Shown here: positions 48,230-50,339 of the stretch, piece by piece
Position numbering within the stretch: the first letter of the stretch is position 1
Layout: each line of letters begins with the position of its first letter
Sequence record: PQ850610.1
Source of the DNA: Escherichia phage JacquesWildberger_Bas92
Length of the DNA: 64,000 bases
Reading direction: 5' to 3' (one strand)
Position numbers and translations under genes: made by a program
Notes under the pieces: model-generated
The model's database searches: none
The model's input: only the letters and a program-made list of their open reading frames with translations
What the model was told of the DNA's origin: nothing

Positions 48230-50260
48230 TTAACCTCTATTCAATGAACATTTAGGAGAATTACAATAAACTTGATTCATAGAACCAAGCGTACAACTTT
48301 CAGCATCGCGCCACGGAATCTGCTTAAAACACCCTGAGCAGTAGCCGAGGGTTGACCACATTGCTTTGGTGAAGTCAGTGCTTCGGTTTCCGTCGAAGCT
48401 GACAACAGTTTTTCGGAGAGCTGTTCGTGATTCAGGAAACACACCTGCTTTCTCAGCAGGTTCCTCCTTTTTTGGCTTAGTTGAGATTGCAAAAATACTG
48501 TTGCTACGTTTCTCAACATAAGCATCAACAACATCCTCCAGAGTAATGCCTGTCTGTTTCGCTGAGGAAGGTAATATAGTCATACGACCAATCATATCTT
48601 CAGTTACACGTAAAGCAAATTCAGGACGACGGGAGTTTGTTGTATCTGTTGCTTTAATCCAGACATAACCATCTTTGATCGTAGCATTAGATACTTTCTT
48701 CTTTATATCTACAGCGCAGACTTTACAGATATCTTCACCACGAAGACGACTGAGTTCATCATCAAACTCGTTCTCTGTTTTAACTTCACCACAGATTTCA
48801 CAAACACCAATAGGAGTTTCCTCCTCTTCTTCATCTTTAGGCTTAGTCAAACCTTCCAGACATTCAGGGTGCCAGTAGCATTGATATGCGAAGACTGCTT
48901 TAGGTGCATCCTTCCAATCAATGTGTTTATCACAACCGCCACAATCACCATGAGAATGTGCTTCCCAGAATTTACGAGTGATAGTAACGCCATTCTTGTT
49001 GACGAAACTATCATTCATATCAAAAGGGATATCATCATCAAAGTCAGCAGTAGTTGACTCAGGCTCCTTTTTCTCCAGAGATGGGTCAACAAAACGACCT
49101 GCTGTGATCACTAAACGAACCATAGCATTAACTTCGGAGATACAGGATACTGTCCCACGGTAAACAATTTTAGGGTCTTTCAGGGCATCCTGATAAGCCT
49201 TAATGTCTACGTTATGAACATCACCTTCGATATACTCTTGAGATTTCTCATCGTAGATATAACCAATCATCTTACCACGAGAAGGAACAGCACCAGCAGT
49301 TGCATAAGGGACAAACTCATGTGGTGTGATCTCCACAGTCATGTCGCGGCGAATGTCAATGTTTCGATCGCTTGCGATTTTGTTTTGACTTACCACTGCG
49401 TTTCTTCGACGAACGTCTGCCGCTGTCACTCCCGGCTTCGTGTCGTAAGGATTGCTTGTACTGCTTTTTGAGGAACTTTGATAGTTGCTTTGGCTGTAGT
49501 TGTTCGAGTAGTAATTGCCCCAACGATTGATTACCGTAAAAACCGGAAGCTCGTGGGCGACCTCTTCAACTAGAGTCATGCTGTTGTTTGACACATCAAA
49601 GATGTATTCTGTACCAACTTTACATTCAAAGTGCTCATCAATGCGATTCTTGTGAGACCTAGAACGCTTCAGAATCCACATCAACATATCTTCTTCAGAA
49701 GCACCAAACCAATCTCTGTTACAACGTGCAAGATGGAAAGGACGCTCTTCATTACGGATGATATGAAGACGATTATCAGAAGCATCATGCCAGATTAAGG
49801 TGAAAGCACCATCCAGCTTTTGAATAGTCTCTGCTGCACCAATAGTGTTAATAGAGTGGCAGATGTTTTCACTGTCTACCTCGAAGTTTTTACTGTCAGG
49901 TAACAGGTCTTGGTTCATCAAGGTTCCGTTATGAACCAGAGTGATGTTACCGTGTTGGAAAGGATGGGCGTTCTTGGCGTTAACTGCACCTTTCGTTGCA
50001 TGACGGCTGTGACCAACAATCCATGAAGGTGCTACAGTGTAAGCTGTTTCACCAGTGGTGTGCTTCTTGTACTCATCTTGAAGGATGAATGCGAAAGAAG
50101 GAAGTGCCTCTTTATAAGTGAAGACTTCTTTAGTGCTTTTACGCTGACCAAAGATACCAGAGGAGTGCTGTCCTCGGAATACTCCAGCATAAAAGAGTTG
50201 GTTAAATATATCTAAATCAGTGCTTGACAGATTACCGCCAGCTAATACGATGCCACAAAT
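48230..50260 (-). CDS. class-II (Ntn) glutamine amidotransferase fused to Cys-rich C-terminal domain; ATT start
   Basis: upstream of track start the frame encodes CGIVLAGGN...FRGQHSSGIF...HPFQHGNITLVHNGTL (PurF-like N-terminus with Cys nucleophile); only upstream start-like codon is ATT at 50260-50258 with SD aggtgg. Confidence 0.65.
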   Translation of the reverse strand: MCGIVLAGGNLSSTDLDIFNQLFYAGVFRGQHSSGIFGQRKSTKEVFTYKEALPSFAFILQDEYKKHTTGETAYTVAPSWIVGHSRHATKGAVNAKNAHPFQHGNITLVHNGTLMNQDLLPDSKNFEVDSENICHSINTIGAAETIQKLDGAFTLIWHDASDNRLHIIRNEERPFHLARCNRDWFGASEEDMLMWILKRSRSHKNRIDEHFECKVGTEYIFDVSNNSMTLVEEVAHELPVFTVINRWGNYYSNNYSQSNYQSSSKSSTSNPYDTKPGVTAADVRRRNAVVSQNKIASDRNIDIRRDMTVEITPHEFVPYATAGAVPSRGKMIGYIYDEKSQEYIEGDVHNVDIKAYQDALKDPKIVYRGTVSCISEVNAMVRLVITAGRFVDPSLEKKEPESTTADFDDDIPFDMNDSFVNKNGVTITRKFWEAHSHGDCGGCDKHIDWKDAPKAVFAYQCYWHPECLEGLTKPKDEEEEETPIGVCEICGEVKTENEFDDELSRLRGEDICKVCAVDIKKKVSNATIKDGYVWIKATDTTNSRRPEFALRVTEDMIGRMTILPSSAKQTGITLEDVVDAYVEKRSNSIFAISTKPKKEEPAEKAGVFPESRTALRKTVVSFDGNRSTDFTKAMWSTLGYCSGCFKQIPWRDAESCTLGSMNQVYCNSPKCSLNRG

Positions 50261-50339
50261 TTTCTAATCCACCTGAAGGGTAAACCCTTTCATCTAATTA
50301 ACCTTTAAATTGTGCCCCTTCGTCAGAGGCACCCATTGA

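Follow-up and report, generated by a model that had tools for sequence, protein, structure and literature searches.

How translation reaches the catalytic cysteine of an enzyme when no usual start codon stands before it is the question raised by one gene in the DNA of Escherichia phage JacquesWildberger_Bas92 (PQ850610.1; the 64,000-nucleotide stretch that we analysed is called the window). The minus strand of the window carries a gene for a glutamine amidotransferase (GATase) in which the cysteine codon is directly preceded by ATT. The region around this start is 100% identical to that of Escherichia phage LAMP (MG673519; Kuravirus, Gordonclarkvirinae), a phiEco32-like podophage, and window positions there equal LAMP record positions minus 3259. 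At full length the gene, gp83 of LAMP and gene 83 of phiEco32, spans 676 codons from ATT to TAA (48230..50260, minus strand), which is also where the GenBank coding sequence of LAMP maps. Its translation and Pfam matches place a class-II, N-terminal nucleophile (Ntn) GATase domain at the N-terminus and a Cys-rich region at the C-terminus. We propose that gp83 is probably translated from the AUU at 50260-50258, as part of a recurrent module consisting of a hairpin, a Shine-Dalgarno (SD) sequence and an AUU or AUC start.

The start site of gp83 and its product

Read along the minus strand, the start region is ATG (50293-50291) AAA GGG TTT ACC CTT CAG GTG GAT TAG (50266-50264) AAA ATT (50260-50258) TGT (50257-50255) GGC ATC GTA TTA GCT GGC GGT, and the frame from ATT encodes (I)CGIVLAGG. 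Only AAA and ATT lie between the in-frame TAG (50264..50266), two codons before the cysteine, and the TGT (50255..50257) that homolog alignment and a structural model identify as the codon of the Cys1 nucleophile, leaving ATT (50258..50260) as the sole possible start in this interval. The first ATG, GTG or TTG after the TAG is a TTG (49919..49921) 112 codons 3' of the cysteine, which encodes the Leu of an HNGTL motif and is the false 'first canonical start' of a mechanical list of open reading frames (ORFs). The first-pass annotation of this DNA had read the ATG…TAG-AAA-ATT-TGT arrangement exactly; it was also right that no canonical start lies between the cysteine and the automated start, although it put the distance at 110 codons.

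An AGGTGG SD (50269..50274) lies 8 nt (ATTAGAAA) before the ATT, precisely as had been noted. Its duplex with the 3' end of 16S rRNA was computed at -7.0 kcal/mol, and it belongs to a GGTGGAT that corresponds to the GGAGGAT of other ATT lineages. A hairpin, AAGGG-TTTA-CCCTT (50276..50289; RNAfold, -6.1 kcal/mol), is located 1-2 nt 5' of the SD. The TAG, which falls within the spacer between SD and start, ends a 9-codon upstream ORF (uORF, MKGFTLQVD*; 50264..50293) that is in frame with the GATase, ends 3 nt before the ATT and includes the 5' arm of the hairpin in its codons 2-3. An SD-like AAAGG (50302..50306) is found 8 nt 5' of the uORF ATG. All these elements are on the minus strand. The GGATTAGAAAATTTGTGG of LAMP is also present in the distant lineages L163 and L258, while L164 and L218 have TAT instead of TAG.

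We aligned 11 genomes of Kuravirus, Nieuwekanaalvirus and Suseptimavirus, the lineages of which share ~70-71% nucleotide identity over 3.3 kb. Across the 112 codons from ATT to TTG, variable sites at the first, second and third codon positions numbered 28, 18 and 91 of 112, and the remainder of the GATase domain showed the same pattern, indicating that the 112 codons after ATT evolve as coding sequence. Amino acid identity in this N-terminal part was ~80% across genera, and the catalytic residues were invariant.

Pfam detected GATase_6 (3e-15) and GATase_7 in gp83. Among 30 diverse homologs, residues C1, G2, R28, R85, T88, N110, G111 and D128 were invariant, and these invariant residues are the counterparts of Cys1, Arg26, Arg73, Thr76, Asn98, Gly99 and Asp123 of GlmS, to which (1xff) phmmer aligned gp83 over the HxRxAT…NAHP…HNG…D motifs. 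The class-II fold is a four-layer alpha-beta-beta-alpha arrangement in which a beta-strand begins at the nucleophile. An AlphaFold (AF2) model of gp83 had a predicted confidence (pLDDT) of 89.9, with a beta-strand at residues 2-7, and the best Foldseek matches in the PDB were GlmS (3ooj and 1xff; E 2e-13, TM-score 0.69 on the target), PurF (1ao0 and 1gph), asparagine synthetase (ASNS) and EgtC, with E values ranging from ~1e-13 to 1e-9. Thus gp83 has the cysteine codon right after the start, the glutamine-site residues and a predicted Ntn fold with the nucleophile so placed. The PurF-like N-terminal Cys nucleophile assigned in the first-pass annotation is borne out by the invariance in the 30 homologs and by the Foldseek matches. 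Because the GATase motifs, the invariant residues and the modelled fold match those of GlmS and PurF, sequence and model together indicate that mature gp83 must begin with its cysteine.

The leader in Gordonclarkvirinae

An alignment of orthologs had been suggested, to see whether the ATT/TAG context is conserved. A 64-nt query comprising leader and start retrieved 99 phage records at a coverage of at least 80%, of which 68 were identical and 28 differed by a single base, in the aligned genomes a synonymous GGC/GGT change of codon 2. The ATT and its leader are kept in ~96 Gordonclarkvirinae genomes of at least three genera, which refutes a sequencing error, the alternative raised in the first-pass annotation, and equally a strain-specific mutation at the start. 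The coding sequence already begins at ATT in the GenBank records of phiEco32 (NC_010324, gene 83), LAMP (MG673519, gp83) and the BASEL phages Bas86 and Bas89, and AUU initiation is itself a known mechanism. The records of Paul, KBNP1711, SU7 and EP335 have an N-terminally truncated coding sequence, in some cases starting near TTG 49921. The literature searched, which did not cover the original 2008 phiEco32 paper, contained no discussion of a start at ATT, of the invariant leader and its uORF, or of the pattern across the family.

The 95 annotated genes of the LAMP record start with 85 ATG, 6 GTG, 1 TTG, 1 CTG, 1 ATT and 1 ATC, and stop at 63 TAA, 23 TGA and 9 TAG. TAG is therefore an ordinary stop codon in this phage. 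The sole tRNA encoded in the window is tRNA-Arg(TCT), and no suppressor tRNA was found in its 64 kb; a reassigned TAG or a phage-encoded suppressor was rejected on these grounds. A -1 or +1 frameshift at GAT-TAG was rejected as well, since both frames stop within ~10 codons and the GATase lies in frame 0.

The longest invariant run in the 11-genome, 3.3-kb alignment was a block of 55 nt at the start (50253..50307, minus strand; TAAAGGTTAATTAGATGAAAGGGTTTACCCTTCAGGTGGATTAGAAAATTTGTGG). The runner-up was 15 nt long, and 54% of all alignment columns were invariant. The block begins one base 5' of the AAAGG and contains, in order, this element, the uORF ATG 8 nt on, the hairpin, the AGGTGG, the TAG, AAA, ATT and the Cys codon. 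After a single variable base it is followed by 11 more invariant nucleotides (ATCGTATTAGC, 50251-50241, codons 3-6), making one variable site in 67 nt. None of the 30 nt of the uORF varied, while 81% of third codon positions varied in the neighbouring coding stretch, indicating that the constraint acts on the nucleotides and not on the peptide. The exact match between LAMP and SU7 at the leader is 58 nt long and ranks 17th genome-wide, the longer ones being mostly in structural genes. The identity of the leader thus appears locally exceptional and not unique, and its origin by recombination is possible. Two further exact matches between LAMP and SU7 (~70% identical) outside structural genes, of 57 nt (57137-57193) and 59 nt (32458-32516), are likewise ultra-conserved and may be regulatory.

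Several other explanations of the leader were considered. A scan of its gene strand revealed no sigma70-like promoter, and the gp36 promoters of phiEco32 precede genes 6, 13, 26, 40, 58 and 68, not 83 (PMC8948821); a promoter in the leader was rejected on both counts. Rfam returned only sub-threshold matches at chance level (astro_FSE, at 16 bits where the gathering score is 70) and the folding z-scores of the whole leader were not significant, so that a known RNA family or a stable overall structure was set aside. A repeated genomic element was also rejected, as the window holds no second copy of the leader. On the plus strand, a sigma70-like TTGACA-16 nt-TACGAT (50224-50251) lies antisense to the 5' end of the GATase gene. 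RNA started from these hexamers would be complementary to the leader; the -10 falls within the invariant ATCGTATTAGC, but conservation of the -35 does not extend to SU7 or KBNP1711.

Relatives outside the subfamily differ at this site. The Grimontviridae phages Proteus 3H10_20, Cronobacter A24, Salmonella SE131 and PKM.Lu.22.1 have ATG-TGT, as do uncultured relatives at 59-70% identity (L014, L015, L035, L154 and L158); the scan of metagenomes for relatives yielded at least a few. Lineage L159 (65% identical; protein P0004) has AGGTGA-CTAAA-ATT-TGT, and here the gene caller took the in-frame GTG of the SD as start and predicted MTKIC (GTG ACT AAA ATT TGT). ATG-start relatives from Grimontviridae and uncultured phages (L006, L007, L014 and L015) share a TTTAAATGTAAA(T/A) motif before the SD, ~15-30 nt 5' of the ATG. 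The motif resembles the phiEco32 gp36 promoter element tAATGTAtA (PMC8948821), and LAMP has TTTAAAGGTTAAT at the equivalent place.

The uORF ATG is missing in the nearest ATG-start relatives, L158 and L154, and for this reason we regard it, from comparison of the leaders, as a clade-specific feature. LAMP and L158, its closest ATG relative, have AATTTAAAGG-N8-ATG in common. One open idea is that the uORF ATG could be the displaced ancestral start, behind which a 33-nt cassette of hairpin, SD and ATT was inserted. Against this, MAFFT aligned the leaders of LAMP and L158 collinearly, with ATG opposite ATT; the leader of L154 suggests a third homology for the uORF ATG.

ATT and ATC starts across the family and their possible use

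Among 84 database homologs of the N-terminal domain, 66 start with MCG and 16 had been truncated at the N-terminus by gene callers. The truncated proteins (P0018, P0024, P0031, P0036, P0038, P0051, P0072 and P0079 among them) start at a downstream Met and lack the cysteine. We looked up the loci of four of the 16 (32-41% identical to LAMP), and all four had ATT-TGT behind GGAGGAT and a 6-nt spacer: GGAGGAT-AGGAAC-ATT, GGAGGAT-AAAGTT-ATT, GGAGGAT-TATAAA-ATT and GGAGGAT-TAGAAA-ATT, the last repeating 18 nt of LAMP with the in-frame TAG included. Lineages L160, L162, L163 and L164 have this GGAGGAT-N6-ATT-TGT architecture.

The frequency of such starts was estimated from IMG/VR loci retrieved by internal peptide motifs, a sample that is blind to the start codon. 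In 80 of 281 loci the start codons were 66 ATG, 10 ATT and 4 ATC, and 46 ATG, 5 ATT and 4 ATC remained when the sample was made non-redundant. ATT or ATC precedes Cys1 in ~16-18% of lineages, about one in six. At 15 of 20 distinct ATT/ATC sites there was no canonical start between the nearest in-frame stop and the cysteine. A rough neighbour-joining tree, in which deep branches are unreliable, scattered the ATT/ATC lineages and implied at least 16 switches between ATG and ATT/ATC; clear tip pairs with opposite start states included LAMP (ATT) and L158 (ATG), L159 (ATT) and L154 (ATG), L160 and L443, and L413 and L452. A search of IMG/VR with GGWGGAT-N6-ATT-TGTGG found 9 further amidotransferase genes, and the ATG version at least one. 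In bacterial genomes, GGAGGAT-N6-ATTTGTGG gave one GATase gene among the 120 matches listed, the rest being chance matches. Taken together, these comparisons indicate that the ATT/ATC start is a recurrent, family-wide trait and not a one-off.

The two kinds of start also differed in what lies upstream. In the start-blind, non-redundant subset (9 ATT/ATC and 46 ATG lineages), the median energy of the SD duplex was -7.8 kcal/mol for ATT/ATC versus -6.4 kcal/mol for ATG (p=0.018), the median minimum free energy (MFE) of nt -45 to -12 was -6.0 versus -1.0 kcal/mol (p=2e-4), and the median shuffle z-score was -1.3 versus +0.5 (p=2e-4). A larger, pattern-enriched set gave a hairpin MFE of -6.1 for ATT/ATC versus -1.6 for ATG (p=1e-6), with a mean shuffle z of -1.6 (p=2e-8 versus zero) and 0.0, respectively; GGAGG occurred in 65% of ATT/ATC versus 4% of ATG sites, a comparison of SDs that is biased by the search pattern. 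The hairpins are unrelated in sequence, occur in nearly all ATT/ATC lineages and have their 3' ends at -12 to -17, against the SD, and the AAGGG-TTTA-CCCTT of LAMP is one of them. Comparison across lineages thus supports a local, SD-adjacent hairpin.

These features suggest how initiation might proceed. The 30S subunit would bind AGGUGG 8 nt 5' and set fMet-tRNA on the AUU; deformylase and methionine aminopeptidase would then strip the formylmethionine and expose Cys1, as an Ntn amidotransferase needs. Methionine is removed before a small residue such as Cys, and initiation factor 3 (IF3) is known from infC to discriminate against AUU. The AUU start would attenuate synthesis of the glutamine-hydrolysing subunit and make it dependent on the state of the host, while synthesis would be kept from falling too low by the stronger SD, perhaps with help from the hairpin beside it. 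The hairpin would be melted by ribosomes that reach the end of the uORF, and these could then reinitiate at the AUU, on top of de novo initiation. In a reporter system AUU was 6-8x weaker than AUG, and at the infC junction, UAA GGU AUU, reinitiation and de novo initiation contribute about equally (PMC3592434). Among start codons, it is the non-AUG ones that nutrient limitation and ppGpp depress most (PMC5499595). With an AUU that is weak and presumably sensitive to ppGpp and IF3, we infer that the module would give low, host-state-dependent synthesis of the glutaminase.

A wider reading, which we put forward tentatively, is that hairpin, strong SD and AUU/AUC could form an initiation module dedicated to the Ntn amidotransferases of phages and acting as a gate whose setting depends on the initiation fidelity of the host, through IF3, ppGpp and ribosome availability. 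Such a module might be exchangeable between phages or have evolved repeatedly, and the glutaminase subunit might be made only in suitable amounts or host states, both being conjectures of the same low standing; with no greater confidence, one may picture the gate of Gordonclarkvirinae as elaborated by a uORF that mimics the thrS-infC junction. If true, a non-AUG start would for the first time be a selected, family-wide regulatory character in a gene family other than infC, and the SD-abutting hairpin would have a specific role in AUU initiation.

It is possible, though doubtful, that most translation of the GATase comes by way of the uORF: ribosomes would start at its ATG, read 9 codons, unfold the hairpin, stop at UAG and reinitiate 3 nt on, with de novo initiation at AUU contributing little. 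The uORF has a canonical ATG and the SD-like AAAGG, at which the invariant block begins, it is free of variation, and its stop-NNN-AUU spacing equals that of thrS-infC (PMC3592434). Spacer stops are frequent in ATT/ATC lineages, as GGAGGA-TAG/TAA-N4-ATT or GGAT-TAG-AAA-ATT; in L160 the stop ends a 303-codon amidoligase gene 4 nt before the ATT, and in L206, L413, L201, L218 and LAMP it ends ORFs of 9-30 codons. However, in seven inspected ATT/ATC lineages (L163, L195, L246, L416, L426, L449 and L456) no ORF with a start of its own ends in the spacer, the TAT of L164 and L218 replaces the spacer stop, the nearest relatives lack the uORF ATG, and the invariance of the uORF gives no codon-level sign of its translation. 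A universal coupling signal in the spacer is not supported, as many ATT/ATC lineages lack such an ORF, and for the same reason reinitiation appears plausible and not required. Of the termination-reinitiation route considered in the first-pass annotation, the UAG-AAA-AUU geometry holds, whereas an upstream ORF is not universal among ATT/ATC lineages. We consider it unlikely that the 55-nt invariance has another cause. Candidates would be an operator bound by an RNA- or DNA-binding protein of phage or host, a target for base pairing, a recent recombinational sweep or an antisense promoter, and with any of them AUU would still be the start. The invariance does extend to positions that SD, hairpin and start do not need, ATCGTATTAGC in codons 3-6 included, and the antisense hexamers and the mosaic of exact matches between LAMP and SU7 elsewhere fit such causes. 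Yet the leader is single-copy and without an Rfam match, the antisense -35 is not conserved, and a sweep of exactly this segment is hard to reconcile with a block shared by three diverged genera and flanked by diverged sequence on both sides. The recurrence of hairpin, SD, spacer and AUU/AUC with different sequences in other lineages is what an initiation module predicts.

The two remaining explanations dispense with AUU as the start. Initiation at the upstream ATG (or at GTG 50272), with readthrough of the TAG and autocatalytic removal of a propeptide of ~12 residues as in Bacillus subtilis PurF, is very improbable. The ATG is in frame, the extension is close in length to the PurF propeptide, and the frame of P0004 (L159) is open. 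The GTG of L159, however, sits within a perfect SD, AGGTGA, 5 nt before the ATT, and TAG is an ordinary stop codon in a window with no suppressor. Other ATT lineages have an in-frame TAA or TAG at varying distances, 2-16 codons 5', with no start in between, the homologs that start with MCG (66 of 84) have no propeptide, and the uORF lacks the synonymous variation expected of a peptide-coding region. These observations weigh strongly against the readthrough route that had earlier been listed beside AUU initiation. Most improbable of all is that the N-terminal part is not made, either because translation starts at the downstream TTG or an ATG or because the gene is decaying and has lost its nucleophile. 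The records of Paul, KBNP1711, SU7 and EP335 and the mechanical ORF list do start downstream, but the coding signature of the 112 upstream codons, their ~80% amino acid identity and their invariant catalytic residues contradict a truncated product, and initiation at the downstream codon would fall within the conserved HNGT motif and split the predicted Ntn fold.

Initiation at AUU, the first option of the earlier annotation, is favoured by the coding signature, the invariant cysteine, the fold match, the ~96 genomes and the recurrence with a strong SD. Some observations weigh against it, or against the module in which we place it. At -7.0 kcal/mol, the AGGUGG of LAMP is a weaker SD than the GGAGGAT found in other ATT lineages; the upstream ORF absent from many of these lineages means that coupling is not a general requirement; and the whole leader folds no better than shuffles (RNAfold z -1.8 for 126 nt and -0.6 for 75 nt). 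Total invariance cannot separate translational constraint from a protein- or RNA-binding site or a recombinational sweep, and other exact matches of 57-242 nt between LAMP and SU7 occur in the genome. The proteome of phage SU10 detected the protein against a truncated annotation (63.8 kDa) and is silent on the N-terminus.

Gene neighbourhood and known systems

The gene lies in a minus-strand early-gene cluster comprising, in order, a COOH-NH2 ligase (52067-52873), gp85, an amidoligase, the amidotransferase, two small ORFs, an ATP-grasp enzyme (46591-47784) and a GGACT-type gamma-glutamyl cyclotransferase (45665-46084), the ligase, ATP-grasp and GGACT genes being taken from the Pfam scan and ORF list. 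The amidoligase gene 5' of gp83 (gp84; 50340..51443, minus strand; Pfam Amidoligase_2 and LAMP annotation) likely encodes the partner enzyme of gp83 in a common operon; the wider neighbourhood of amidoligase, ATP-grasp and GGACT hints at a partner for the glutaminase activity. Just 3' of the amidoligase stop, a GC-rich intergenic hairpin was computed at 50312..50332 (minus strand; GTGCCTCT-GACGA-AGGGGCAC). Its stem differs between Kuravirus (GGGTGCC/GGGGCAC) and Suseptimavirus (GGGCGC/GGGCGC), with pairing apparently kept in the alignment as inspected by eye. It has no U-tract and could be a terminator-like, stabilising or processing element.

Between the genes of the COOH-NH2 ligase and amidoligase, LAMP gp85 (51440-52060, minus strand) has ATC as its annotated start. 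A GTG follows one codon after the ATC (52057), and the record of phage Paul starts there; the ATC is probably an annotation choice and not a second non-canonical start. The C-terminal ~400 residues of gp83 (48230-49400, minus strand) contain three zinc-ribbon-like CxxC…CxxC pairs without a Pfam match, and the alignment consensus shows CxxC pairs at the C-terminal end of its homologs as well. The coding sequence of the COOH-NH2 ligase is annotated as two joined pieces in Bas86 (L021) and Bas89 (L019), and that of a DNA polymerase-like protein of LAMP (record 36462-38574) is also joined. HNH endonuclease genes are found in SU7 (L028), between SU7_86 and SU7_84 and just 5' of the gp86 counterpart, and in Bas89, directly after the GATase gene. 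These joined coding sequences and HNH genes point to a traffic of introns or homing endonucleases among these phages.

To our knowledge, AUU and AUC starts are exceptional in bacteria, the known cases in E. coli being infC and pcnB. The additions made here are a leader with 55 invariant nucleotides, a uORF junction resembling that of infC and, most of all, a recurrent module in about one-sixth of lineages, a description of which was not found in the literature searched. There is a practical consequence for annotation: gene callers cut off the catalytic N-terminus, as in the truncated homologs and phage records described above, which makes the enzyme appear inactive or removes its Ntn signature. 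A search for AT[TC]-TGY-GG behind an SD would repair such calls. With ATT and ATC gained and lost repeatedly, together with a stronger SD and a hairpin, the family offers a natural comparative system for AUU initiation and its selection. No other part of the amidoligase-amidotransferase region is as conserved as the leader, which suggests that an uncharacterised but widespread phage pathway of amidoligase, GATase, ATP-grasp enzyme and gamma-glutamyl cyclotransferase is tightly controlled.

As an enzyme, gp83 resembles GlmS, PurF and AsnB/ASNS in its N-terminal Cys nucleophile, its conserved Arg, Asn-Gly and Asp residues and its predicted fold. It differs from them in having no fused synthase domain of known type, its C-terminal 400 residues being Cys-rich and without a Pfam match, and in the location of its gene within a phage amidoligase, ATP-grasp and GGACT cluster. 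The PurF of B. subtilis is made with an 11-residue leader, which is cleaved off. An in-frame extension of similar length precedes the cysteine of gp83, but this one is broken by a TAG with no suppressor at hand, and the relatives of gp83 have no extension. There are also superficial parallels to the bypass in T4 gene 60, namely a hairpin at codon 2, an SD-like sequence before a possible landing codon, a UAG in the gap and an AAA at both 50290 and 50263. A bypass from AAA to AAA was rejected because it would give MKIC…, in which Cys1 is not exposed, with only a dipeptide on the tRNA, and because other ATT lineages lack the matched codons or the uORF.

The closest likeness in the start itself is to infC of E. 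coli. Its AUU is conserved among orthologs, directed by an SD and preceded by the stop codon of the preceding cistron one codon 5' (UAA GGU AUU in infC and UAG AAA AUU here). In gp83, too, AUU is the sole usable start, the SD lies at a functional distance and the codon is conserved among orthologs. The upstream cistron of infC is a real gene, thrS, whereas that of gp83 is a 9-codon uORF, to which the SD-abutting hairpin is added. Moreover, the AUU of infC serves autoregulation by its product, IF3, whereas gp83 is an amidotransferase, and a dependence of its AUU on IF3 would only sense the host.

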